A stretch of DNA of 64,000 nt from the NCBI GenBank assembly GCA_051294905.1, contig CM119371.1:2358001-2422000 (forward strand), given 5' to 3'. This document shows positions 1,904 through 59,760 of this stretch, in pieces. This stretch comes from Botryllus schlosseri. Taxonomy: Eukaryota. The notes beneath the pieces are model-generated. The model made no database searches, was not told the DNA's origin, and saw only the letters and a list, made by a program, of their open reading frames with translations. The position numbers were made by a program, and so were the translations under genes. Each line of letters begins with the position of its first letter. Within the stretch, counting starts at the first letter, position 1.

Positions 1904-3952
1904 CAGTTCTCGGAAAGTAGCGCACCAATTACATTGTTCCTTTGAAAGAGATTTACTTGCATATGCAATCACCATTTCTTCGCCATCTTAAAGCTGTGAC
2001 AACACTGCTCCTGCACCAAAACCAGAACAATCAGAATCCAATATAAAAGCACCACCATCCTCCAAAGGAAACGCCAATATAGGAGCGGAGGTCAGTTTGA
2101 TTTTCAATTGATCAAACGCCATCTGACACTGTTCATCCCATTTGAAGTTGACACCTTTCTTAGTGAGCCGCAGCAAAGGTTTGGCCACCGATGCAAAGAA
2201 TGGCACAAACTGTCGGTAATAATTTGCAGTGCCCAAGAATGCCTGCAAATCCTTCAATTTACAAGGCACAGGCCACTCCTTGATCGCATTCACTTTCTCT
2301 TCGCAGCACAAAACACCGTTTGACGTGATAACATGACCCAAATACTCCACCGACTTTCTGAACAATTTACACTTGGACGGTTTAAATTTCAGTCCTGCAG
2401 AACGAATCCTGAGGAAAACATCCCTCAAATTTGCAATTTCCTCTTCAAAACTCCCGGCATATACCATGACATCATCAATGAATACCAGAGCTTTCTTGTA
2501 TAAAATACCAGCAAGAACTTTTTCCATCAATCTTTGAAACAGAGGTGGCGAGTTGGCCAATCCAAAAGCCATAACCTTGAACTGGTAATGGTCTCTCCCA
2601 GGAAGGCTGAAAGCAGTTTTGTGGCGATCCTTCTCATCAATCTCCACCTGCCAGAAACCACTGGCTAAATCAAAAACAGAAAACCAAGTGGAATTACCGA
2701 GCGAGTCTAAAATGTCATCAATCCTTGGCAGACTGTAGGCGTCTTTCACTGTAACTTCGTTCAGTTTTCGAAAATCCAAAACAACACGAGATGATCCATC
2801 TTTCTTAGGCACCAACAACAATGGTGTATTATACGGGGAGTCCGATTGCTCAATAACATCTTGATCCAGCATCTTATCAATCTCAGCGTCCCATATCTTT
2901 CGCTTGGCCCAGCCCAATCGTCGCGGAGGCACTTTGATTGGTTTAGACGAGGAAGTCACAATTTTGTGCTTGATCACAGAAGTACGACCCAAGCGACCAT
3001 CTGGGCCACAGAAAACATCCTGAAATTCAATCAGGAGGTTCCGCAATGATTCGAGGTGGAAATCAGAGAGACCTTCCACACCGTCTACCAGACACTCCAG
3101 ATGCTCAGGTAGAGATCCGGGATGATGAGGAACATCCTGAACGAGCGTGGGACAGCAAAATTCCACAGGCTGACACTCTTGCGGACACAAAACTCCCAGT
3201 AACAAGGCAGCTGGCAAAATAATGTCCTCACCGCCAGAATTAACCAACAGCAAGGGTATCCTATCCAATTCTGGGTCTACCAATCCAGGGACCAAATACA
3301 GACCACTCGACTCATATTCATTCACGAAATTACCTGAAGGTTCGAAAATAACTGCAATTCCATCCAACTGGGGCCAAGTCTCATTAAGTTTACCATATAT
3401 TATCGTCTCACTGTACCCAGATATAGCTACATCACTATCCAAAAAGATTCTACAGCAGGGCACTGATGGAGCGGACGGTTTAAGATTGACCCTTTGGCCC
3501 AACACTTCCATGCATTCGTCTTTTGCATACAACACACAATCATACTCTTTAAAATAATCATAACCCAAAATCCCAACAGCGGCGCCGAGCTCCGCAACAA
3601 CCACTTCCTTGACAACACACACAGACTCAATGCACATTTGCACCTTACTCCTACCTAACACGTTCAGCCATCCACCATTGGCAACTTTACACGACTTCTC
3701 ATACAGAAACAGCTCACCTTTGTTAGGCATATCATCCCACACAGAAATATCGATAACTGTAATCGCACTGCACGTGTCAATAAGAAACTTGATCGAAAAA
3801 CCATTCACACTCACCATCGCAAACCAATTAGTTGATAAAGCTAACGAAAAAACCAAAGAATCATGTTCTAACATCCTATCCAATGATTGGTCCATAGCAC
3901 TGGTCTCATTCGCGGTATCACTGGACCAATGATCCGCTACTATCGGTTTAAA
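1904..3952 (-). pseudogene. pol: Gypsy pol: aspartic protease, reverse transcriptase and partial RNase H, with a premature stop
   Basis: Motifs FLIDTCSAITVI (protease), SPYNTPLLLVPKKDG, DFRKLN, DLASGFWQV, MAFGLANSP, VFIDDVMV, EYLGHVI and FILDSDCSGFGAGAVLSQ. The TAA at 1988-1990 is followed in frame by DGEEMVIAYASKSLSKEQCNWCATFREL. Confidence 0.95.
3901..3952 (-). promoter_or_regulatory. -1 programmed ribosomal frameshift signal (UUUAAAC plus predicted hairpin/pseudoknot)
   Basis: T TTA AAC (3952-3946) is in the gag frame just before TAG TAG. The -1 frame is open into pol. After an 8-nt spacer, GCGGATCA pairs with TGAT-A-CCGC, and the loop TGGTC is complementary to GACCA downstream. Confidence 0.8.
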
Positions 3953-4590
3953 GCTTGATGGGTCGGTTGAGCAGGCACATTTTGATTAAACACAGGGCCA
4001 TACATCTGGTTCGGAGCAGGATACTGGAATTGACATTGATCGGCCACGTGACCAGCCCCACGGCACCTTGCGCAAACAGGAACCGGGCAATTACGTATCA
4101 AATGGGACGGATCACCGCACCGATAGCATTTTGACATTACGCGACGTTCTGGCTTTGAATACCTAACTGGGGCAGATTCCATCGATTTCACCAGTTTTTT
4201 AACCTCCAAAGACAAAGCTTCCAAGTCTTTGCGAAGATCAGAAACACCAGAACACACTCCACTACTAGACGTACAATTTCCATCAGAGTCATAACCATCA
4301 CCAGTTTTAATCAAAGACTTGGCCACCTTGCCCTGGTCTACTTTACTCGAAAAAGCGCCTTCGTAAACCTCTGCGACTTTAATCAGGTCGTCCAAATTGC
4401 TCGAATCCTGCAAGCTAAGTAAAGCACACACATGGGGGTCTGAGAAACCATGGCAAAACTGCTGAATTACCATCTGCTCACAAACTTGGTCAGACATTTG
4501 AGGATATGCCTTATGGGCTAAACTTCGCAGGGCCGCAGCAAAAGCTGTGGGTGACTCCCCTGGCAAGTTCTTTCTAGTGGCAACTTCCAA
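3940..4590 (-). CDS. gag: Gypsy gag C-terminal part (5'-truncated) with two CCHC zinc knuckles
   Basis: CYRCGDPSHLIRNC and CARCRGAGHVADQC; capsid-like PGESPTAFAAALRSLAHKAYP...QQFCHG. Confidence 0.9.
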   Translation of the reverse strand: MEVATRKNLPGESPTAFAAALRSLAHKAYPQMSDQVCEQMVIQQFCHGFSDPHVCALLSLQDSSNLDDLIKVAEVYEGAFSSKVDQGKVAKSLIKTGDGYDSDGNCTSSSGVCSGVSDLRKDLEALSLEVKKLVKSMESAPVRYSKPERRVMSKCYRCGDPSHLIRNCPVPVCARCRGAGHVADQCQFQYPAPNQMYGPVFNQNVPAQPTHQALNR

Positions 4591-4604
4591 ACAGCTCCCG
4601 GTAT

Positions 4605-4806
4605 CAAAATGCGATCACGCAATTATGCTTCGTACTTCAAAAAATCAACTTGAATTGAACTATGACTTGACTCGTGACTTGACTTGACTTGACTCGACTT
4701 AACTCGAGCCATCTTTGAAAATAGGATGACTCGACTTGACTCGAGTCAAATGTCAATGACTTGAAATGACTCGTGACTCGAAGGTGGTGACTTGGTTCAA
4801 ACACTG
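4605..4806 (-). mobile_element. Truncated MITE end, GACTCGAGTC/GACTT-repeat family (same as 16827-17803)
   Basis: Reverse complement of the 16827 left end; terminates in ...aacactg. Confidence 0.8.
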
Positions 4807-34341: not shown

Positions 34342-34756
34342 CAGAGAAGCATACATTGCGGTGCCTGTATAAAAATACTGTTCTCAAATCCACTTTGTCC
34401 TAGTTAATATCGGCGAGATACGGCTTCGTAGTGACATTGCTGTTGTTAAAATACATTGATTGAATACGATTTAATCCTCGCATATGCTGATCGGTGGTCG
34501 AATAATGGATCGATTCCGCAATTCGCACCGCCGAGTATACCTAATTATGCTATACACGCCCCCGCGGACTGCAGAAGTTGGCCGCTCCTGGTATAACACA
34601 TATGTAAATGAGGCAATAGCGACAGCTAACGGTTGTCAATCACACATAAAAGTACAACTAACCAGTAATCGATACAGCTCGCAAGGATAAACTAGGAATA
34701 TATATGTGTGAGCTATGGTACAGGTTTAGACACAAAAAGCTCAGTCTTAGTACCCC

Positions 34757-35935
34757 ATGTTTATGAAAGAGCTTGGCATAACGTCAATGGAGAGATACTC
34801 TGATCCACCCGGAGAGAAACGAGTGTATATCGCTTCCGGTTCACACCGCAGTGAATTATACAGACTCGCCACGTTCGCCAAATTCTCTAGAATATCATAC
34901 GCAACACGCACCGATTTAGCGTCTGAAGGATACTACTGGCTAGGATTTAAAGACAAAATCAAATGCTGTGGATGCAGTGTGTACCTCGAAAGATGGACCG
35001 GGTCGAGTGCACGGCGTCATGACGCGAATTGTGTACGAGACGCGTTGAACATACCTATTGTGAAATCGAATTTCAAACGTTTATTGAGACAGTTTAAAGC
35101 CGTTGGAAACGCCAACATCAACTTTGCGAATATCCTTGATCAAGAGCACGAGTATCGGGTTAGGAATCTCGACTTGCGAAAGGAGTCGAAGCGTCGCGAA
35201 ACCTTTGAGAAATGGCCCAGCTATCCCATACCACGGGCGGTCGGCGAGTTGGCAAAACAAGGTTTATTCTACCTCGGTGACCTAGACAGAACGCAGTGCT
35301 TCAGTTGCTCCGGCGTTCTCCGCAATTGGAGGCCTACAGACGATGTATCTGAAATACACTTGACGTATCACCCGGATTGTTGTTTCGCACGTGGCGACGA
35401 TTCGGGGACTGTTGCGCTAACCAAGCACGAACGAGACAATTTGGATAAGTTGCTTGGCGACAAAATACGACGTCTCACTTTACATCTACAAGAACCACAG
35501 GAACCCTCAGAGGACGAAAAGCGATGTCTTGAGCAACTATTTCCTTGTCTTGAACCCGTGAATCCTCTCATGTCGTCGTTGTCAAAAAGAATCGCAACGT
35601 TCGACAGGGGCTGGGAACCGAATAAAATCAAGGCTAGTGTTGAACAGTTAGCAAAAGCGGGGTTTTACTACGTCGATTCGGACAGAACCAAATGCTTTTA
35701 CTGTGACGGCGGGCTTCGTTGGGACCGCGAAGACGAGGTTTGGACAGAACATGCTAAATGGTTTCCACAATGCGAATACGTACTCCGAACGAAAGGTATC
35801 GAGTTTGCGCAACGTATCGAAAAGACACACCCGAATCTCAATCGTCCTGTGATTAGAAACCCCATAACCAGACAAAAGTTGATCAAACGCCAAAAATTGG
35901 TCTACGGAAACGTCACTCGTGCGATCGATCTATGA
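34757..35935 (+). CDS. Inhibitor-of-apoptosis (IAP/BIRC) family protein, three BIR domains, no RING/UBA/CARD in the ORF
   Basis: Intact 392-aa ORF. BIR1: RLATF..LASEGYY..DKIKCCGC..W..H..C. BIR2: RRETFEKWP..LAKQGLFYLGDLDRTQCFSC-x16-H-x6-C. BIR3: RIATF..LAKAGFYY..DRTKCFYCDGGLRW..WTEHAKWFPQC. ATTAAA follows the stop. Confidence 0.95.
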   Translation: MFMKELGITSMERYSDPPGEKRVYIASGSHRSELYRLATFAKFSRISYATRTDLASEGYYWLGFKDKIKCCGCSVYLERWTGSSARRHDANCVRDALNIPIVKSNFKRLLRQFKAVGNANINFANILDQEHEYRVRNLDLRKESKRRETFEKWPSYPIPRAVGELAKQGLFYLGDLDRTQCFSCSGVLRNWRPTDDVSEIHLTYHPDCCFARGDDSGTVALTKHERDNLDKLLGDKIRRLTLHLQEPQEPSEDEKRCLEQLFPCLEPVNPLMSSLSKRIATFDRGWEPNKIKASVEQLAKAGFYYVDSDRTKCFYCDGGLRWDREDEVWTEHAKWFPQCEYVLRTKGIEFAQRIEKTHPNLNRPVIRNPITRQKLIKRQKLVYGNVTRAIDL

Positions 35936-36121: not shown

Positions 36122-39060
36122 TATATGCATTGTAATATTATTTGAGCCATAAGAAGATGACGGGGCGCAGTGGCTTACTACGCGAGTCAGTCGGTGTGAA
36201 TAAGCAGGCGCGTGGTCAGCAACGAAATACAGTCCCTATTTCTGAGGTACTCGAGTCACTTTTGACTACTATCACAGTTACCAACGTACTTGCCCTCGAC
36301 AGTTTTATGGGGACATACTCTTTTATAATTCGGATAGAAAAGCGATTTCACGATACCGACATTTCTTAAAAACTGCTTGAGTACTCCAAAGCTATATTTT
36401 GTCCTTCCGTTTTGAAGTAAATGTGGCATGTGTTGTAAATCGCTCCAGCTATCTCGATAACCTCGCCAGAATGCGTAGTTTCGTCAGGATCTGCAGTTCT
36501 CAGCACGTTGTGCATACACAGAGAGAGGGACTGCAGTGGCGACTTGCTTCAGTCGAGTAACGGGCGATGTCGATTTCACACGCATTCCAAAATATATCAT
36601 GTGAGAATGATACACCACCACCCCGGCTATTTTCGGTACGACGTTGGATCATTTGGCTGTACTAAGGTATGTATACCCCGGCATGGTCGAGTGCGTTCGA
36701 TCTTTTTCATGTTACGGTAGTTTGGGCGCTTTTACTATTCACATGTTTACACAGGCCCCCGTATCCACGTAATAGCCGGCACAATACCACCATAGCGTCA
36801 TTTTTCCGATTTGGCTACGTAAATACCCGACTTTTGTAATCTAGGCCCACATTTTGCGTTACTCGTGATGTTTTTTGGATATGTTAAGCTAACAAAGAGG
36901 ACAAATTGACAGAAAGAGAGTACATTTGGGAGAAGAGGTGACATATCTGGGAAAAGTAGTACATATGCTCCCCTAAATGAGGCCGTATGGTAACCCTACT
37001 AAAATAGGAGGGTCGATGGGGACAACAAATGGATCGTATCGTGTTGCTGTCAACCAGAAAACGAGAGTTTTGTCAAACAAGGGGACTGATGACTGACATC
37101 GACTGTGTCACGCTCGATTGATCACAGCTGATTTGCGTACAGCACACTGCATCAAAATTACAAGTATTCGAATGACAAGTCATGAGATGCCGTCTGTGTG
37201 ATCATCGTTCCTGTCGAAAAATTAAGCCATTTTCTCGAATTCCCCACCGCCCGACGGTTGTATTGCTAGCCTATTCCCGGACTCTTTGGACCTGGATTCA
37301 CAGCCCCTGTTAGTGATCACCATGTTTCAATACTAGCGTCAACAACCCTGTCAAAGGAGTCGTACGAAATATTATCGTTTGAACGTGGTGGATTAGCTTT
37401 TTCATAATAATATGAATGAAATTTACATGGATATATCCCGTTGGAGTTGTTGGCGGATAAAGTTGTTATCGTTGTGTGATTTTGCCAATATGCTCCTTGT
37501 GGTGGCAAATCTAATTACACTAATAACACCTGTACAGACAAACAGAAGTCCGCCAATGAGTCGATACAAAGTCTCGCTGTACGTGAATGAATGTACAACG
37601 ACACCCCCCTTACAGCAGAACTGTTTTGTCTGGACGGGGGTGGTCACGATTCGTTTCCGGCGCGTATTTCATCAGTTTTGGTTAAACCTGGGCTGGATGC
37701 GGCCCTTGCGTAAGCGGTGTCCTATAAAAGCCAAGAATTTAGCTGTAGTACAAGTCGGCGACAACGGAATAGAAATGAAAAACATTCTGGTCTGGTGTCA
37801 ATCAATCACTCGGTTTATTAATATTTCCATCATTTCAAAACATCACAAGACTGCGATACCATGAAAAATGACCATAGTAGTCAACAAACACAATGAATAC
37901 CCCAAAACAAACAATATATGTAGCAAGTCTGCGAAGGGTGCTTAATGCTTATAGTCCATGAAATTGATATAAACACTGCATAGACGACAAATGTAAAACA
38001 TTTATCATGTGTAGTCTACGGGATATATCTTGATTGGATTCTCGATGAGGGTGTTGGCTATACTGTATAAGTTGTTTTTTGAGATAATATCTGGCGTAAG
38101 GATAGAAACTGGTGTTCCACTCCCAAATATAGATCATTCCAGTCCAGCCGATTCCTCGTTGCCATTTTTGGCAAAGCGACCGAATATATTGATTTTGTGG
38201 AATTATTATAGCATTCAATTGTTCTAGTGAATGTATTTGGGGACATTTGAAAAGTCAGCAGGTACGCCACCACAGAGGCATAATATGTCCCGAGTCGTCA
38301 CGAGTTATCATGTATATCAATATATTATTTTACGAAATTGTAGGGTTTGAACTAGGAATATGCTGTTTGGTGACCCTTATTGACACGAACCAAAACCTTT
38401 CAGGGGTTCGTACCATCCCTAGTAGGTAGTCCGCGACTGATGCTTATGCAACCAAGCAATGACATTGATATAAACTGCACATCGTTGTCTAACGTAGAAA
38501 ATCTAACAGGCGTACTATTTCTTGTCTTTATTATTTTTGGCCCTATAAACACTGAGACGGTGAGGCTTCTTGCTCAAGCATTACAGTACTTATGAGACGC
38601 GGCATATTATTTGTATTTATTTTTATTGAAAAGATTGCTTGAACATGAAACTATGTCGAAATTTGCTGCGGTCTGCTTAAGGGGGCGGCATTTTCAACGA
38701 AACCCATCGACTGCAGCGCCAGCTGATACGCCACTGCAGGAACCATCTTGATTTCATATGTTTATTGTATCATAAAACCAAATACGTGCAATTAGGGTGT
38801 TGGCTAAATTTTTAATTGGGTAATATCGGTAGCAATGAAAAATATTTGCTCAATGTCAATGTAGCAATAACTAAGGACGACATGATTTCTGCTTTTTCGC
38901 CGAAAAAGTGACAACGAAGTCAATTTTTCTACGCTGATTACGAATATGAAGTCGCTTTTTTCTCACGTCACGATTGTTTATCATCTGTGATTTGAAATTT
39001 TGCATTTCATTGCTAAAAACAGACTGTTCTGTGACATATTCCATGCTATTGGGTCATAGC

Positions 39061-42000
39061 CAATGTTCCCTCTAAGCTGCGTACGGGCGCAAATGCGCAG
39101 TGCTGAACCGGTCTCTGCGCACAGAAAATCTTAGCTGCGCACAAAAAATCTGTAGGGATGACTTTTTTTCTTTTTTCAATTGTTGTTCTCCAAGGTACCG
39201 CGCAAGCGCGCACACTCGTGAAAAATCAGGCGGAACATTGCCAGGGGGCAATAGTATTATCGATGAAGTCTGAAACCGAGGGACAAGTGCGGTCAGTAAA
39301 GTTAAATATTGCGCTATGTGAAGAAATGATAATTTGCAATGACGTGCGCCTCACGAAAGAGATTTTTCTTTTAGTATAAGGCAGTGGTTCCCAAACTTTT
39401 TCGGTGTGAGGGCCAAATTTCGAATTTCAGAGCACGCTCGGGGCCGCACGAATACTACGGCTATGAAACGGACCCAAACAGTCATCATGGCTATTTCGGA
39501 GTGGTTTTATTGCCCTGGCGAGATTTTAAAAATGTACACTATTTACCGCTACTTATATGCTGCATTGCTCGGGTGTCCGTTAAGTTAATCAACTTTACAC
39601 GTCTATACGCGCGAAGCGCGAGAAATTTCTTTACTTTCATGACTGAATCGGTCAATATGATCGGGAATGGCTCAATTGCATGTATTTTTATAATTTTCCT
39701 CTTGTCTCTGTTCACGTAATCTGATTTACCGGTAGAGCTGAGTGAGGTGTGTTTGAAAAGGTGTATGCCCCCTCAATAGTAATTAAACATATCCGGGGGT
39801 ATACCCGTTGGCAAGAACGTAATGGCACTTCGTCAGGACCCCGGGCTCCCATAGGGTGATACACTGACCCCACATGACGTTGTTCGCTTTTTGCCACGAA
39901 ATTAAAGTTGTACTGTTTATTGAGACAGCGCGACGCGCCAATATTTCGATAATTCATGATAAAATCGGGAATTGCATGGTTGTCTCTTTGCCCACGTAAT
40001 CCGATTTACCGGTAGAGCTGAGTGAGAGGTGTCTTTGAAACTGCAGACCCAATAAAATTAAACATCTTCCGGCGGGCAGACCCATAGATATGATTTTTCC
40101 TCATTATGCTATTTCGTGACATCCTGTCTGCTATATCAAAAAATGTAGAATAGCCCAAACCTACGTTATCAAAAAATGTAGAATTGCCCAAACCTACGAA
40201 ACTGGAAGATACCACGATTTCAGATTGGTATTTCTTCACTGGCATATAATTTTATTTCCTGCGGGATGGTATTTGTCTTGTGATGTTCAGATTGTCAAGA
40301 CGAGAACATTCGGCGCCAGCCATTTAGGCGCCTATATGCACAAATAAACCTATATGTATTTTTGTATATAACGAGGCTTTTGGTATTTCGAAGTTTCTGG
40401 TCAGCATAAAAGCAGCCCTTTTCGGCCAAGGCTTTCTCGCTACCGATCGTTCTGACACACGTCTTGGAGTCACATGTTACATGGCCTAAAACTTTATACG
40501 TCTTGGTGCGTTGTGGTGCGGTCATGTCCAACGCTGATATGCCCATTTCTACAAATCTTGCGTATTTTGTCTTGGGGAAGAGCACCCAATAATCAAGGTA
40601 TGCGGCGAGACATTTTTGAAGAAGTTGCATAACTTTTCAAAAAATACTCTATAATTTATGCTAATTAACGAAATAATTTTGGGCCCCCTTCGAGCTCGAC
40701 CCACCTCAATTGGGGGTTTGGGGTGCGGCAGTTACGGCCCTGAATATAGCACTACCAATTATGCTGCTTTTAGCCGACTAAGCAGTATGCATTTCGGCGT
40801 ATTCAACCATGAGTCACGTGTTTCACATCTAGTTATCACCGGGTTACCATACGTCCTCTTTTAAGATTATTTGTCTTTTTTTTAAAAAAACGTGTCCTCG
40901 GAGGACGCCCAAATGTCTTTTTATTTTGAGGATTTTGGTTACATATAGGGCCAAATTCGACTGATATACATCAAATCAGCACTGTAGGAACGCAACGGCG
41001 GCTATTTCGGGAGCTGGACCGGGAAGCTGACCTTTTTTTCAGTCAACCACATGTTATTTATTTTCAGTTAACCACATGTTATTGTGAAAGAAAAACTGTA
41101 TTTTCCGGGAGTTGAGCCTCTTTTTCTTTTTTAGTCAGGAGACCACGAGGGAGAGATTTTCCTCCGGTTTTGAAAGTTATCAATACCTATTTATATATCT
41201 ATAGCTACTTGCTCGTTCAACTGGAAAGTTAGGGCATATTGCATTGAAACAGCAGTGACGTAACGTTAGCAGTCTATACTCACAACTTTCCTGCAATTCT
41301 ATAATTAAAAAGTAGAGAGGCCAAGCCAAGCCAGAGTATTTTATAAATATGATTTTTTTTTTCATAAATCGATTTCTGAATATATTTTGGGGGCCGCAAG
41401 AAGGCTCTCTGGGGGCCGCACTTGGGAATCACTGGTATAAGGTCTCGTGAGCGATACTGGTATCATTTCAGTAGCACAATCTTTTCTGGGAATGGCGAGA
41501 TAACATGGTTTAACTAAATAACAATGGGCTAGCGCGAAGGTAATCTGCGAGAAACTAACGAATAGCCTAGTCTTCTCCGTGTGGCATGAACATTGCGTAA
41601 GATTTACTGTACAATTACATGCCGTGAATTTTCGAAGTCATCACTTTCATCAGGCAAATCTGATCACGTATGGTGAGATAGGATAATATGCAGAATATGC
41701 AAGTACAAGCACCAACATTGTTGAAAAATCCACCCCCTTGCAAACGTCCACCAGTAAACGCTGCAACTGTGCACTGTAGGGCGTGGAATTACATCAGCTT
41801 CTCAGCTTCAAAAATTTTAATATTATTCAATTCGTTTGAACGGGAGTTTTCTGTCGATAAGGTAATACCTAGGATACCACATTTTGGAAATCTGAAAAGA
41901 GGACACTTTTGCAATACCGGAGGAAAATACTGAAAAATTGTGAATTGTTTCCACTTCGTAGTCGCAGGGCCGTAACTGCCGCACCCCAAACCCCTCTATA

Positions 42001-43082
42001 TTAATAGAAATGGGCATATCGGCGTTGGCCATTACCGCGCCACGACGCACTAAGTCTTAGTGACTAAGACATATAAGGTTTTAGGCCATGTAACATGCGA
42101 CTCCAAGAAGTGTGCCAGAACGATCGGCAGCGAGAAAACCTTGGCCGTAAAGGACTGCCCTATGCTGACCGAAAACTTCGTTATATATGCGAAATACATA
42201 TAGGTTTAATCGCACATATAGGCGCCTAAATGACTGGCACCGAATGTTCCTGTCTTGGCAATCTGAACCCCATAAGACAAATACCATCCCGCAGGAAAAA
42301 AATATATGCCAGTAAAGAAATACCAATGCAAAATCGCGTGATCTTTCAGTTTAGTACGTTTGGGCGATTCTATATTTTTGATATAACAGACAGGAGGTCA
42401 CCTCACTCAGCTCTACCGGTAAATCTGAATATACGTGAGTAGAGAGGACCTGGAATTGATAGCAAAAAATATGCATTTCCCGATCTTATTGACCGATTTT
42501 ATCATGAATTTTCGAAAATTTTCGCGCTTCGCGCTGGCTCACTATACAGTGCAACTATAATTTCGTGGCCAAAGCGAATAATGTAAGGGGGGGGCAGTTT
42601 ATCACCCTATGGGAGCCCAAGACTCAGGTTTTTTTTTAGGAGGGGGGCTAACGAAGTGCTGTTTCGTTCCTGCCAACGGCTATATACACCGGGAGATGTT
42701 AAATTATTATGGAGGGGTCGTACCTTTTCAAACACATCTCCCTCAGCTCTACCGGTAAATCAGATTACGTGAGCAGAGAGAGGATAAAAATAGATAGCAA
42801 TACGCAATTACCGATCATATTGACCGATCCAGTCATGAATTATAGAAATTTGTCGCGCATCGCGCGTTTAGGCGAGGAAAGCCGACCCACTAAACGGACA
42901 CTCAATGTAGCAGATACAAGTTGCGGTAAACAGCGTATAGCCTGAGGGGGTGTGGGGCCAAAGCCCCCCCAGAAGTTCGGCTTATCACCATATGGGGGGC
43001 CTGGTTGCGCACTGTTGTCCAAGGGCCTGCGCAGTGAGTTGGCATCTTTGCGCAGACTCGCGAAAAATTAGAGGGAACATTG
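39061..43082. mobile_element. Non-autonomous hAT element (outer shell of nest 4)
   Basis: TIR CAATGTTCCCTCTAA; perfect TSD GTCATAGC (39053-39060, 43083-43090). Confidence 0.92.
39382..41434. mobile_element. hAT element nested in 39061-43082
   Basis: TIR CAGTG(G/A)TTCCCAA; perfect TSD GTATAAGG. The flanks rejoin to match 21100-21640. Confidence 0.93.
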
Positions 43083-43299
43083 GTCATAGCTATATTGATT
43101 GTGACGTCAACGGAATATGTCAAAGTATTTAGGTACTCGAATACTCAAGTAGAAGTAAAAGTAAGTAGCAAGTAGCCTATTATAGGTCTAGTGTTTGATA
43201 TCAATATCAATCTAATATTATCTTATTTTTAAAACATCACAGGACTGCGATACAATGAAAAGATAAAAAGGCGTCGAAACGAATTGTAGTAGTCTCTCC

Positions 43300-44750
43300 T
43301 ACGCGATGTAAAGAAGAAATATGCACGACACACTGAATTAAAAATAAACGACATTGAGGCTGTGAAGCATTTGTAAACCAAAAAAACTTTAGAATTTCGT
43401 GTGCCAATGGTTTTAAGAGAAACACGCAGACATGGAAAGATTGTTACATTTGGTCATGTTTTTTGGGGGATTCAATGTCAAAAATGATCATAAAATTACA
43501 TATCCAATTTGACTTGCGTAATTCGACCGACTCCTCATGGGCCAGATGTCACAATTCCGTTGCCGTCAAAATTTTTACTAATAGTTGAAGAAGATTCTCT
43601 CGGTAAGAGCCATTGTCTGACGCGATCAGCAGCTATGATCTGAAGCTATATCAGGTTGAGCTAAATATATTTGTCATAAATGTGAATTTTGCCAAAGGAA
43701 TTAGCTCTTATTGTAAGTTTCAGATTAAAAGCTAGACGTATTCTCGGCACTGATACCTCGCCTCCGAGCCCTCTTTTGTCTATGTTGTCGTTGTTCAAGG
43801 CCTTATAGAGATATTGGGAACTGTGAATTGCGCCTTGTTATTCATGCATCAAGCCTCAAAGCTAATTTGTCACACAATACAAATCATTGTGCGTTTAACT
43901 CCGTATCTGGTACAACTGAAATCAAGGGATCATAAGAGAATATGAAACGTTTGATTTAAAATTTGGAAGATGTTATTCAAACTACTCAAACGTGTGAAGT
44001 TTCCGTAGATTTTGAACTCATAAATATGCTACTGGTTTAAGTGTCTAAAACTACGAGGTATCCTTGTTTTATTTGTGAATGGGATAGTAGAAATCATTAA
44101 TTAAATGTCAGTGGCCAATGAGGGAGTATCTTGCACCAGGCTCTACAACAGTGGTTCCCAACGTGGGCGATTTGGTGGCGAAAATGACGGAGTGGGCGAT
44201 AGGGGGCGATGACGCGTCTAAACGGCTGTCCTTTTTTTAGTCAACCCACGGAAATTTAGTTACAAAAGTGTCAAATTAGACATCGACCCGATAAGATGAC
44301 CTTTTTTGTTTTTGTTTTTTCAGTCAACCCGCCGGTGATTACAGTTGGTATGTTGGCGATGATCGGTGTTGAGCTTGAAAAAGGGGACGATGGGTCGAAA
44401 AATGTTTGAAACCACTTCTCTACAACGTTGCAGAGCCTGCTCTGATCGACATATGTAACGTTGTATTTCCCTAATGATAGCTTATTTATCAAACCATCTC
44501 ATGAAAAAGTTTTCAAATGCTCTTTTCAAAAAGAGTTCACGTTCTTAATGCATCCACGAAAAGTTTCCTCTCTCGAGTTAATACAATAAAGTGTGTAAGT
44601 GTATATTTGTTGTACATCAGAACACTTACCAAAACCCCCTAATTATTATTAATAAAGCGTGTCTGGAAAAAAATACATGACTATCTGCAATGCAAGTTGC
44701 ATCTAAATTCCCTGGAAACACCAAGTATCGTGATTATTTGGAGGGTATTG
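43300..44750 (+). pseudogene. Decayed Chapaev3-like (CMC superfamily) DNA transposase
   Basis: Ordered motifs across frameshifts and stops: FRVPMVLRE..H..DCY, KNDHKITYP..IRPTPHGPD..IP, QVELN..PKELA..RLK, ELRLVIHASSLKANLSHNTN, VDFELINMLL..RYPCFICEWDSR, WPMRE..PG..NV..ALID, EKFP, FPGN.K. Confidence 0.8.
44149..44417. mobile_element. hAT MITE inserted in the Chapaev3-like transposase
   Basis: TIR CAGTGGTTCCCAAC-like; perfect TSD CTCTACAA. Confidence 0.9.
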
Positions 44751-45412
44751 TTTCAGACAATAAAACCTCCAATCCAACAAAGTAAGGAAACGGCCATCAC
44801 CATCCATGAACCTCTCCGCACGTTACTCGTTTACCATTATGTTTTAAGTGTGTAGTACTAGGATCAGGTTAGCCTATATGGATATAATGCGGAGTTCCAG
44901 ATCCACATCACAATATACTCGCCATCACAATACATATTACAGTGGATTACCTCGAACCTGCGAAAAGTCATGTGTGAACGAATAAGTGATCCTATGACGT
45001 CACATGATGTCATATTGCTGATTCCAACCCTAAATTTCAGTATTCACGATATCCAGTGACGACTCAGGCCAGATTATGCCACGATGCTTAAGTACGTGCC
45101 GACAGCAATCCCGGCAATGTATTCGGCATTTCTCTTATCACGTCACATTTTTCATCACAACTGGCAAAAGATTTGTCTAATTCAAGTTTTGCATGCTCCA
45201 ATAAGGCAAGCAGCGTGATAAGTACAGGTTTTTACGGACCAAATATGGCGCACACGACGAATCTCATGTATATTGGGTTCGAATTGGTTCTAGCTTGACG
45301 TCACGGCTTTCAATTATGACGTGGAAGATTATTGACATGTATGGCTCTTTAAGAGTTGGAACGGAGAAATAGGGTCAATATGGCTTTGCATAAAAAAGAG
45401 GTTGCCGGCCCC

Positions 45413-46093
45413 TGCTTTAAAGATTTGGCCACATGATCGAGCAATCGTGGTACTTGAATGAAATCCAGGTACATCGTCTCAAAGTTCATCCGGGCTACAC
45501 TGACGGCCTTCATTGTGCTTAATCGAAGTATCAACAATCAACATGCTGATGCCCCATAACACTAACAAAATTAACATGACTCCTTTTTCACACATTTTGC
45601 TAGTCCGTGACAAAGAGCCTCGAGGTGGCCCATTCTCCCTAATTGAGACCCCATATCGGATGAAAAATCATTCAACTTACCATGACTCGATGGAGTAGCT
45701 TCTCCTTCAGAACTGGTGAAGTTGAACACATTTTTTACGTTCGTCTGATTTCCGGCCACAAGGTTAACCGTGCTCTTATTGAACCTCAGATTAACATTTT
45801 CACCTTGAGCCAAAGTTGTAGATCCTAAAACACAAGTCAGTACTGTACTGCGTGCCCGGTTACATACATGTTCTTGTCATAAAATAAATTGGGATTCTAT
45901 TACGTTCTTCGATATATTTCTGTATATTCTTTACACAGCGAGCGAAATGTGCAGAATTTGAATAAGTATACAACTGTTTAATAAGTGGTCTGCGCTAAAA
46001 AAACAGACATTACTTACCCCTTGCTTGTGGTGATAATGACGTAGGCATTTCTTCAGCGACACCAGAATCGTGATCTTGACCCCCTTCTGCCAT
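45413..46093 (-). CDS. Spliced gene or recent pseudogene of unknown function: exon 1 46093-46018, exon 2 45824-45681, damaged exon 3 ~45560-45413 (RHIM-like and CARD-like features)
   Basis: Start context ACCATGG, donor G|GTAAGT, branch/acceptor CTGACttgtgttttag|, second donor G|GTAAGT. Both introns are phase 1 and the frames join: MAEGGQDHDSGVAEEMPTSLSPQARGSTTLAQGENVNLRFNKSTVNLVAGNQTNVKNVFNFTSSEGEATPSSH. Confidence 0.7.
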
Positions 46094-46399
46094 GGTATTA
46101 TTAGCGTGGTACTAATCAGCTAGCGTATATGACAATACTGGAAATATATATTAATTACAATTCGTAAAGGAGGTTTATGTAGATCTTGTCGTGACTATCA
46201 GTTGCAACTGATATGATGCATCTGATAAAAATGTTATAGATCAGCGGTTCTCAGCCGCCGAAATTGGACCGGCGTCGGTCGGTTTCAAGTTTCCTGCCAG
46301 TCTGCCAAATATACTACAATATCACATGTCAATTGAAAACGCACGAGGATGGTCCCTGGTCTAGATAAATATAACGTAAAATTTGCAATTGATCTAGAG

Positions 46400-46945
46400 C
46401 AGGGGTGGGCGACATACGGCCCGCGGGCCGGATCCGGTCCGCGAAGGGATTTTGTCCGGCCCGCGGACAGTTTTCTGTCTTACATGATAATGTGGCCCGC
46501 GGCCCTAATATTCAGAGATTCCCTACTACTTGCGTAAACGTAAAATTTTAGTGACTGTATGTTATTATACACATATATGCGCACTGCGTAGTGAGCGAGG
46601 GTGGTGCTTACTCGTGAGTTAGTCGAAGCGAGAAGACTTGCATTATCGGTATTTACGATGTACTCAAGCCGAATGTCATTTGTGGTAATCATGATGTTTG
46701 TCGACTACAATGGTCATTTACACTAGGCCGATATCTCATATTTTTGATTCCGTAATCGTCGACTTGTAGCATGGCACAATTCTAGGCTTTTGTAAGACAT
46801 CACTTATGCCAGGGGTCGCCAACTCGAAACGGGTCGCGGGCCACTTTGAAACTTCGTAGAGGCCGCGGGTCGCATGAATTCAATATCGAGATAAAACAGG
46901 CCACACAGTTGAACAACCACGCTATATCTCATCACCTGCTACACC
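46400..46945. mobile_element. Partial inverted copy of the 15641-19606 hAT element, lacking the 16178-19259 insertion
   Basis: Begins CAGGGGTGGGCGAC; reverse complement of 19268-19606 joined to ~16000-16177. Confidence 0.85.
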
Positions 46946-47699: not shown

Positions 47700-48740
47700 G
47701 ACATGATAGCCATCGAAGTTAGGGAATTTTTAGATGCTTACTACTCTAACTCAATGTTCATATTCACAGATGGGTCGAATACCGCGAATGGATCCGGACA
47801 CTCGGTATATGTGCCAAGTATATATTGACCTGAGAATCGCTCACGCTGATCACTGAAATTTCTCGTCATTCACAGCAGAATTATGTGCCATTAAATGTGC
47901 CTTGAATTGGATACACCAAAACAACATTACCGACTCCATCATTTTAACAGATTTAATTAGTGCTCTGCAATACGTACATAATTTCCGTTCAGCTCGACAC
48001 CTCATAATCAATGAAGTCGTGGAAATAGGACATCGCCCGAAGAATAGAAGCATGTCAACTACAATTGAGTGGATACCCAGACATTCCGGCGTCAGAGGAA
48101 ACGAAATTGCAGATCGACTTGCAAGAGAAGCCGCAAACATCGCAAATGAAACCACGACCCACGATTTACCGCTAACAGACGCAACAACGTTAATGTTCCG
48201 CCATTGCATTCGATCTGGAATGGACAATACCAAAGTAATGACCAGGGAGCAACGTATCGACAATACCAGCCTAACATCGACACGACAATTCCAAGACAAG
48301 AATCGAGAAAAAACGAATCCACGTTATTTCGGTTACGAACGGGACACTGCGGATTGAATGAACATCTCCACAGGATAGGGGTGTTTGCGACACCGCTGTG
48401 TGTCCATTGTGGAGTCATCGAAGACGTGCGCCATTTTTTAAAGGATTGTCCGATACTAGAACAACGCAGACGGATACTAAGGAACAGTGCGCATCGAAAT
48501 AGAATACAATTCGACTTTGAAATCTTATTGAAAGACACCAATATATTACGACACGTAATCGACTTTGCAACATCATCGGGACGCCGTATATAATTATTTA
48601 CATTTGACTTCTGACTGAGAGTATCATGTACTGAATTTGCAAATTAGCTTGTGTTAGTGATGGAATTTGTGTCACGTGGTGCAAAAGACCACGCTGTTAT
48701 AAGCACCATAACATGCTTTTATTATTAAATAATAATAAAA
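47700..48740 (+). mobile_element. 5'-truncated non-LTR retrotransposon (I/Ingi/Nimb-like) 3' end: RNase H plus CCHC, frameshifted
   Basis: IFTDGS, SSFTAELCAIKCAL, EWIPRHSGVRGNEIADRLAREAA, LFRLRTGHCGLN..PLCVHCGVIEDVRHFLKDCP; TAA-rich tail at ~48720-48740. Confidence 0.9.
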
Positions 48741-50764: not shown

Positions 50765-51415
50765 GATCGCACGGGGTGTATCTAATCTGTATATGTCGAC
50801 GTTTGGCGTCGGATATATCAGCTATCAAGACGCCACGGGCTGCATCTAATTTGTGCATGTCGATTGTCGCCGTTTGGCGTCTGAAGGGATATATCGACTA
50901 TCAAGACTCCATCGAATACATCTAATGTGTACATGCCGGCGTTTGCAGTCTGATATATCAACTATCCAGACGCCACGGAGTGCATCTAACTTGTATATGT
51001 CGACGATTGGCGTCGGATATATCAGCTATCAACACGACACAGGCTGCATCTAATTTGTACATGTCGATTGTCGCCGTTTGGCGTCTGGACGTATATATGG
51101 ACGAACAAGACGCCACAGAACGGATCTAATTTGTACATGCCATCGTTTGGTGTCTGATATATCAACTATCCAGACGCGACGGGTGCACCTAACTTGTATA
51201 CGCCTACGTGTGGCGTCGGATATATCGACTGTCAAGACGCCACCGGCTGCATCTAATTTGTGTATGTCGATTGTCGCTGATTGACGTCCGAACGGATATA
51301 ACGACTATCAAGACGCCACCGAATGCATCTAATTTGTGCATGCCGGCGTTTGGAGTCTGATATATCAACTATCAAGACGCCACGGGTGCATCTCATTTGT
51401 ATGTCGACGTTTGTC
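50765..51415. repeat. Minisatellite: ~10 monomers in a 64+76+64 bp (~204 bp) higher-order repeat
   Basis: Monomers start GCATCTAA-like at ~50778, 50842, 50918, 50982, 51046, 51122, 51185, 51249, 51325 and 51388. Every third monomer carries the GATTGTCGC insertion. Confidence 0.92.
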
Positions 51416-57720: not shown

Positions 57721-57839
57721 GTTCACACACAGAACGCGAACGTGAACCTCACGTTCACACCATCCCTACTAGATAAGTCTTCGCGAAGATATCACGAACT
57801 TTAGCCTACAACGTTATCCAATATCGTTGGATCGCTGTT

Positions 57840-59760
57840 AAAACGTCCTTCAACTCCCAATTTATTCAGCTCACTCGCGCAGCATGATGTAGTTGTCTCC
57901 TTTGATCTTTATATATCACACAATGTAACAAAAAGTGCTCTACAGATTCTTCTGCATTACATTGCTGACATAGTGGAGTCTCAGGACAACGGATCTTATG
58001 CAGATGTTGATTCAATCTGCAATGGCCGCTTCTTAATCTCAGTAGAATCACGTTTCTTCGACGTGTTCCAATTTGAGCTCTTCCGGTCTCAGTGCTTCGG
58101 TATATCTGATCCAATTCACATCTACAATGATGTCATAAGACGGATACGTCGGACAAGGCATCACGCAGAGGTAATAAGTGATTGTTCCCTTCATCCCTTC
58201 TTGACGCAGCGTCTTTGGCTAATTGATCGGCGATTTCGTTACCACGAATATCAGCATGCCCAGGTATCCAGATGAACGTGATTGATTTAATGTTATTTTG
58301 AAGTTCTGCAATATATTCTAATATATCGTTTACAACGTAGTCATTGAACGATCCATGATTGGCGATGGCGGTTAGGGCACTCAAACTGTCACTTACTATA
58401 GCAATTTTACTCTGCATGTTCCTTTCAACCCACGATAATACATCTTTAATGGCATGCAACTCTACATAAAATATTGAAAAACATTTAGGAAACGTCGCAG
58501 ACAATTTTACATTCAACCGAGGAATGTATAGGCCTACGGCAGGGGTCACCAACACGCGGCCCGCGGGCCGCATGCGGCCCGCCAAGTCATATTCTGCGGC
58601 CCGCGACCTGATTTGAGATTTCGGAAGAAAGCTAAGAGAACCAATTTGAAATGCTGAAATTGACTACAGTTTCAACATGTTGCTGTTGTTGTTTCAAAAT
58701 AAGCTATTCTCTTGTGCCCAATATCACTATTCGTCACTAGCAAAAACGGCTGTGGTGATGGCAACAACACTCCATCGAGGGAGAATCAGCTGATATGAAT
58801 GGGCAGTCTTGACATGCAATGACGCAAACACTGCCAAAACCGAGACGCTTAGAAAACGGCTTAGGGCAGTGACAGTGGCAGTGGCGCGAAAGCATCAGAA
58901 GGGGAGGCGGAGATGCGCACAAATGAAAAAAATTTCGCGGCCCCACGAGGGGCGCGAGCTCCCAATTTTAGGGACCACTGCCCTAAGCCGTTTTCTAAGT
59001 GTCTCGGTCTTGGCAGTGTTTGGGCCATTGCAAGTCAAGACAGTATGCCCATTCATATCAGCTGAGATTCTCCCTCGATGGAATGTTATTGCTCTGTGTA
59101 TAGTCCGGAATTCATCTTAGAGAATTCTCTTATCAACATTCAACAGTCATTCCCTTCCATGCCATCAAACTAGACGTTGGGATTCCTAGCATTCTGGTCG
59201 CATTTTATGATATGACGATTTTTGAGTATCTTAAATGGGGGCGTGTCTAAAAAAGTTTGAGAACCGCTGGCTTCGGGTTTCGCCACAAGATCAAGCTTTA
59301 CGTGAAGATGGTCTTTCGGCTAGTCATGTATCTCGCTAGTCCCAATATCGATTTCTTAGTCGCTGAAAATCGTTTCCAGGTATCGTGCCCAGCTCACAGT
59401 TCAAAATAAAATAAAATTGATGATAATGATCTTTTGTTGTATTTGTAATCCTTAAATAAAATATTATTTCGTTCGTGGTCAATATACCCATCGCATATGT
59501 TAGGTAGCTCACCGTCGTACTGACGTCGAGTTTTAGAACGTTGTTACATCGATATCGAATTCATGCGGCCCGCCGCGTCTACGAAATTTGAAAAGTGGCC
59601 CGCGACCCGTTTTGAGTTGGCGACCCCTGGCCTACGGCATAACCACATCCTGACGATGTCTTCGAACCATCCGTATATACAAGTGTATGATCACTGCAGT
59701 CCGAGAAAATATGGTCCCGGAATACCACCTTCAACAATTTCTGCAGATGACAGCATTTTA
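57840..59760 (-). mobile_element. Second I-clade-like LINE 3' fragment (RNase H plus CCHC), split by a MITE
   Basis: VYTDGSKTSSGCGYAVG|LYIP..ELHAIKDVL..IVSDSLSAL..WIPGHADIRGNEIADQLAK; LRLRSGHCRLN..PLCQQCNAEESVEHFLLHC. Confidence 0.9.
58540..59629. mobile_element. hAT MITE inserted in the LINE RNase H
   Basis: TIR CAGGGGTC(A/G)CCAAC; perfect TSD GCCTACGG. Confidence 0.95.

Follow-up and report, generated by a model that had tools for sequence, protein, structure and literature searches.

A broken spliced gene head with an Asn/Val-rich motif exon in Botryllus schlosseri, possibly derived from an NLR-type immune-signalling gene

Gene structure and setting of the locus

The DNA analysed here, called the window, is a stretch of 64,000 nucleotides from Botryllus schlosseri. 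It is repeat-rich animal DNA with about 41% GC. On its minus strand lies the front end of a spliced gene, which is cut in its third exon by the end of a transposable element (Table 1). Exon 1 encodes an acidic leader rich in Ser, Pro and Gly that is probably disordered. Splicing of exons 1 to 3 as assembled gives a product of 100 residues, with a stop after 27 codons of exon 3, while another frame of exon 3 is open up to the element (47 codons in all). The initial annotation had proposed exon 1 and a symmetric phase-1 exon 2 with good splice signals, and their coordinates, phases and peptide were confirmed. The halt of exon 3 after 27 codons was likewise found in the spliced translation.

Table 1. 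Features of the locus and of the surrounding window.
Feature	Position	Strand	Remarks
Acceptor-like stretch	46160-46140	-	about 45 bases 5' of the start codon
Putative 5' untranslated leader	46094..46160	-	predicted, from sequence
Exon 1, 76 nt	46018..46093	-	ACC-ATG-G start, G/GTAAGT donor
Intron 1, 193 nt	45825..46017	-	GTAAGT ... TACTGAC ... TTTTAG
Exon 2, 144 nt, symmetric phase 1 (1-1)	45681..45824	-	TACTGAC branch-like site, TTTTAG acceptor, G/GTAAGT donor
Intron 2, 119 nt	45562..45680	-	GTAAGT ... TTGTTAG
Exon 3 remnant	45415..45561	-	acceptor ends at 45562; TGA at 45481-45479
Perfect 7-nt tandem duplication (TGTTGAT twice)	45530..45543	-	sole tandem with unit >4 in 45423-45680
Palindromic 8-mer CTTTAAAG beside element end	45415..45422	-	flank comparison
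hAT-type terminal inverted repeat cutting exon 3	45400..45414	-	motif scan
33-nt cassette	44662-44630	-	strong acceptor, G/GTAAGT donor, open in phase 2 only
GGTAAGT donor, fourth of the window	60290	-	
IAP-type gene, 394-codon uninterrupted frame	34751-35932	+	three BIR domains, Pfam E 3.2e-45
LTR retrotransposon	1991-4614	-	Gag-like (zinc knuckle) and protease/reverse-transcriptase frames, by eye from translations
Nested long inverted repeats	39693-42791		arms 70-116 nt, 75-90% complementary, ~3 kb, high-copy in aligned contigs
Decayed non-LTR retroelement end	47857-48590	+	RNase_H, Pfam E 1.1e-07
Tandem array	50774-51413		about three units of 203-205 nt
Decayed RNase H-bearing non-LTR end	57805-58663	-	by translation likeness

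The heptamer GGTAAGT occurs four times in the window on both strands, and two of these occurrences are the donors of exons 1 and 2. Under a splice-chain filter, whose criteria were fixed after the locus had been seen, exon 2 was the sole internal exon candidate in the window (shuffles averaged 1.17), and an ATG exon followed by such an internal exon was obtained in 0 of 30 second-order Markov shuffles. Because the donor motif is this scarce and the shuffles failed to reproduce the arrangement, the splice architecture goes beyond chance. Exons 1 and 2 are genuine and form the start of a spliced animal gene.

Some further splice-like signals were considered. The acceptor-like stretch near 46140 may mark an upstream non-coding exon with an intron in the 5' UTR, or a trans-splice site. 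An in-frame acceptor at 45495 for exon 3 was rejected, with 7 pyrimidines among its 18 upstream bases. The 33-nt cassette is placed about 750 bases past the element end and could be a downstream exon that remains of this gene.

Terminal inverted repeats of hAT elements are of the type CAGGGG...CAAC with an 8-base flank. The element end that cuts exon 3, together with its 8-base flank, is of this type, as in hAT non-autonomous elements, and hAT-type ends are frequent in the window (10 matches within 3 mismatches, 0.43 expected). The 8-mer CTTTAAAG is similar to sequences that flank further hAT-type ends of the window and is the probable target site. The scanned strand has a single copy of it, and a partner end with this flank was not found in the window, so that the label "MITE" is based on one end. 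A hAT/MITE cut at 45413 had been proposed earlier; the hAT-type end is indeed present, but it starts at 45414, and neither a second end nor a duplicated target site was found in the window. In contigs of sample X3 the depth rises about 30-fold in the bin past the hAT end, reaching repeat-level depth.

Among the neighbouring features, the nested inverted repeats read as a foldback-type or nested element. The IAP-type frame is on the opposite strand, some 9.5 kb away from the locus. No RING was matched in this frame, and its exact sequence was absent from the protein collection.

Two RNA runs were aligned to the locus. Run X4, which may come from another organism, had zero depth on 45084-46400, with 12% of the run covered and 60 reads aligned in all. 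Run X7 had zero depth on 45418-45751, a depth of 0.2-0.3 on 45752-46085 and of up to 1 on 46086-46400 (6% of the run), and nearly all of its reads fitted only in part. No spliced read at the locus was present among the 15 of 761 joints listed for the alignment over 36400-46400. The two RNA runs thus gave no clear sign of expression, though the gene may still be transcribed.

Exon 2 motif and its homologue

The core of exon 2 spans about 33 residues, of which 8 are Asn and 11 are Val, Leu or Phe, with no Pro, and hydrophobic residues alternate with Asn. It is followed by a linker of Ser, Glu and Pro, and by composition the flanks of the core look disorder-prone.

An exhaustive search of 1.84 billion protein representatives, done with the genomic frame read through stops, gave four matches, of which one is real. 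This protein (P0002, E 4.9e-09), encoded on a contig of 975 bases, is the read-through of a homologous exon 2 with identical boundaries, and 31 of 47 residues are identical. At least one homologue therefore exists in the protein collection. Both introns flanking exon 2 align to P0002 as well, intron 1 by its 3' end; the alignment score of intron 2 was reached by 1 of 1000 shuffles (best of three frames). The other three matches (P0003-P0005) were dropped as chance, being repeat-rich (Ig-like or HEAT repeats; Ser/Thr-rich) and matched over 22-41 residues that are partly intron translation.

Exon 2 is somewhat better kept in P0002 than the introns (31/47 against 12/33 in hand-tallied intron stretches; Fisher p = 0.012, or 0.17 when only intron 2 is compared), a modest sign that it may be under coding constraint. 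The linker after the core is conserved as well as the core itself (8/11 and 20/31 identical, respectively), a pattern that recent common descent would explain as readily as selection specific to the motif.

Additional searches for relatives of exon 2 added nothing to P0002. A word-sharing protein search with the exon-2 frame and its flanks confirmed none of 54 candidates, a two-sequence profile of exon 2 and P0002 found P0002 alone among 542 candidates, and no full-length protein carrying exon 2 was found in the protein searches. In metagenome contigs 0 of 224 matches to the exon-2 pattern were confirmed and the DNA pattern gave 0, while in viral contigs 0 of 48 were confirmed. A prokaryote match (L001, 1 of 20; 21 residues, E 3e-4 against the candidates only) was rejected as chance. 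The locus looks low-copy at an identity of at least 85%.

The initial annotation had described exon 2 as a RHIM-like amyloid exon. In RHIMs the spacing is G-x-x-N, one shorter than the Gly-to-Asn spacing of exon 2, where the Gly and the Asn four places on are both conserved in P0002. The tetrad of exon 2 reads LVAG and that of P0002 VVTG, and neither matches the RHIM core tetrad, described as (V/I)-Q-(V/I/L/C)-G in the excerpts of PMC13506858. The Pfam RHIM model matched neither exon 2 nor its core, and neither the read-through nor P0002, in a search whose HMMER filters drop weak matches. PDB sequence searches gave nothing better than E 0.5, and of the Atlas searches one gave a match at 0.77 and the other none, which are leads at best. 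Four copies of the exon-2 core modelled without alignment scored 0.02, a value that speaks neither for nor against binding. By the tests run, exon 2 is not a RHIM. What stood of the earlier description is the conserved, proline-free Asn/Val-rich segment; membership in the RHIM family did not, as both the tetrad and Pfam failed.

Its make-up nevertheless appears to fit the rules for beta-arcades, given by Kajava et al. (2014, PMC4262963) as proline-free segments with alternation of hydrophobic residues and Asn and with disorder-prone flanks. By composition exon 2 resembles the RHIMs of RIPK1, RIPK3, ZBP1 and TRIF and the amphioxus RHIM-NACHT proteins (PMC4262963) in being a short, apparently non-globular, proline-free and Asn/Val-rich segment. 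It also has a Gly after a putative hydrophobic strand, flanks that look disorder-prone and a position that would suit an interaction domain. LVAG and VVTG also recall the cryptic RHIM pattern VxxG. This pattern says little, since among 632 open chunks of 47 residues from the window 178 contain [VL]xxG.

Lesions of exon 3 and copies in other samples

The exon 3 remnant contains a perfect 7-nt tandem duplication (45543-45530 in the direction of the gene). About 0.05 tandems of a 7-mer would be expected in 143 nt. Removal of one unit puts exon 3 in the frame that is open to the element. The duplication explains the shift of frame and agrees with contigs of other samples in which 7 bases of the window are missing, so that it is likely to be the frameshift lesion. 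A 1-nt shift at AATGAAGGCC, as proposed in the initial annotation, is disfavoured and was probably assigned to the wrong site. Under the 7-nt reading a long hydrophobic run takes the place of KHNE at the start of the exon 3 segment, and KHNE is therefore probably not the ancestral sequence.

The exon 3 segment had also been called CARD-like, for a likeness to CARD helices 1-2. Its open frame looks helical and amphipathic by pattern and ends in LLDHVAKSL, which we take to resemble helix 2 of a CARD or helix 1 of a death domain. At E values up to 10, three cuts of the segment found no family in Pfam and the segment found no chain in the PDB, and the exon-3 frame gave 0 matches in the 1.84 billion protein representatives, with 0 of 6 word-sharing candidates and no usable match in the Atlas. 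A single-sequence model of 41 exon-3 residues predicted, weakly, one long helix and not a helix pair. A death fold is a six-helix bundle of about 90 residues, of which only 47 codons could precede the element here. A CARD or death fold in exon 3 is thus unsupported, and the sensitivity of the searches is low for a fragment of 47 codons, which is short enough to escape all of them.

Contigs of samples X2 and X3 overlap the locus and were taken as DNA because they cover introns and repeats. One contig of X2 (record 6, 45423-45634) and one of X3 (record 15, 45464-45646) each lack 7 bases relative to the window, with 7 gap letters. A third (X3 record 14, 45341-45606) crosses into the element and is 14 bases shorter. 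The missing bases of these contigs are placed in exon 3 by deduction, about a third of the shared stretch being intron.

The X2 contig leaves the window at 45423 and runs on for 129 unaligned letters, i.e. into other sequence. It has a depth of 2, differs at about 10% of its bases and ends 8 bases short of the element, which is not what would be expected of a simple empty-site allele. This contig may represent a paralogue. We infer from it that a copy without the element exists in another sample, and this copy is probably also free of the frameshift. An intact allele or paralogue may therefore exist.

The assembled copy is probably dead, a stub of at most 100 residues, and the rest of the gene appears to be gone from the window. 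The earlier view of a pseudogenised or truncated gene is supported by the two lesions, frameshift and hAT end, in the assembly, but it may hold for this haplotype only, given the element-free and 7-base-shorter X2 contig. Neither a strict Walker A nor a NACHT-type Walker B pattern turned up in the six frames of the window, where the gene is cut, and no kinase remnant was found among the 11 ORF pieces scanned in the window.

Possible role of the motif in immune signalling

In the literature, ascidian NLRs are described as lacking an N-terminal domain (PMC11508797), tunicates appear to be without RHIMs (Kajava et al., 2014, PMC4262963), and no tunicate homologue of RIPK1 with both RHIM and death domain was found (PMC12119088). 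Against this background our leading reading, held tentatively and at slightly less than an even chance, is that exons 1 to 3 are the broken front end of a motif-bearing immune-signalling gene, most likely of NLR type. In intact members a disordered leader would come first, then a symmetric exon given over to a short Asn/Val/Gly motif, and then the protein body, most often an NLR (NACHT) exon. Oligomerisation of the receptor would gather several motifs, and these would build an in-register stack of beta-arches in which Asn residues form ladders and a Gly makes the turn. By analogy with RHIM, insect cryptic RHIM (cRHIM) and fungal HET-s motifs, the stack would recruit the same motif on a partner, a kinase or another effector; although not itself a RHIM, the exon-2 motif would do the work of one. 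That it stacks at all is about as likely as not. The splice architecture, the exon kept in P0002, the make-up of the core and the 7-nt duplication with the shorter contigs speak for the NLR-type reading. Against it count the low copy number, the failure to find Walker motifs in the window or a full-length protein with this exon, the linker being as well conserved as the core, the unmatched exon 3, the RNA runs, and the low depth and early end of the X2 contig.

The motif can be set beside known systems. The cryptic RHIMs of the insect proteins PGRP-LC, PGRP-LE and Imd, as described in part of PMC13506858, have a relaxed, Gly-ended tetrad, and P0002 fits VxxG; the window copy, in contrast, has LxxG within a low-information pattern, and a death fold here is only putative. 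Short N-terminal amyloid motifs of fungal and bacterial NLRs (HET-s/HRAM with NWD2, PP with HELLP) are proposed, in the excerpts of PMC12881547 and PMC7885112, to link an NLR to its effector by templated stacking. Exon 2 differs from these in having no sequence match to them and in being a spliced exon of an animal, and there is no adjacent NLR-effector pair in the window. No description of such a motif in tunicates was found in the open-licence literature searched, within which the earlier statement that it is undescribed holds.

An alternative is that the intact gene encodes an adaptor made of an amyloid-like motif and a death fold, either CARD or death domain. We consider this unlikely, and an NLR-type head is at least as likely. 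Imd carries a death domain, and a motif joined to a death fold would mirror it. The adaptor would be an Imd-like partner that turns the stacking of NLR motifs into caspase or NF-kB signalling, broken here and alive in other haplotypes, a version to which we likewise give little credence. The likeness of the helical amphipathic pattern of exon 3 to a CARD or death-domain helix speaks for an adaptor, as do the absence of a NACHT remnant from the window and the X2 contig that runs on into other sequence, and low copy number would suit a rare partner gene. Against it, the Pfam, PDB, exhaustive, word-based and Atlas searches of exon 3 all ended without a usable match, the single long helix of the model argues weakly in the same direction, and the 7-nt reading removes KHNE in favour of the hydrophobic run.

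It is also doubtful that the locus is a real but unrelated lineage-specific gene, whose exon 2 would be beta-rich or of low complexity, neither kin to NLR heads nor amyloid-forming. The lack of a RHIM tetrad and the frequency of [VL]xxG in the window are consistent with this, as is a single homologue recent enough for its introns to align.

In a more specific form of the adaptor reading, the intact gene would be a live low-copy adaptor that joins an amyloid motif other than a RHIM to a death fold and acts as the effector-side partner of motif-headed NLRs, and the assembled copy would be a null allele of it that segregates. This is quite improbable, and the same low standing applies to its corollary that the element-free, 7-base-shorter X2 contig would be the intact version of that adaptor.

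A gene in which the motif is followed by a kinase or another effector without a death fold, with exon 3 as a helical linker, would suit the low copy number seen here; the ORF pieces scanned hold no kinase remnant and exon 3 is unmatched, so this reading has a small chance at best. Still smaller is the chance that the truncated product of about 100 residues is functional as a motif-only decoy that caps or poisons stacks in the manner of Pirk. The start context, both donors and both acceptors are still near consensus, and a precedent is given by Rudra/Pirk, which acts as an inhibitor in the fly IMD pathway and carries a RHIM-like motif (PMC4262963). Against a decoy, neither RNA run gave clear expression, and other samples seem to be free of the duplication, so that the stub is not fixed. 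Chance splice-like words in repeat-rich intergenic DNA would agree with the lack of a spliced read among the joints listed but can be all but dismissed in view of the shuffles and of the homologous exon with the same boundaries in P0002.

Returning to the NLR-type reading, a short stacking motif would offer a way in which ascidian NLRs, described as lacking an N-terminal signalling domain, could signal. A motif-bearing gene without NACHT would be a candidate partner of such receptors. What the locus contributes is an exon homologue in public data, the probable true lesion of exon 3 and a sign that some copies lack both lesions, so that an intact exon 3 should be recoverable. If the adaptor reading were true, a lineage reported to be without RHIMs would have its own amyloid-based pathway of NLR signalling.
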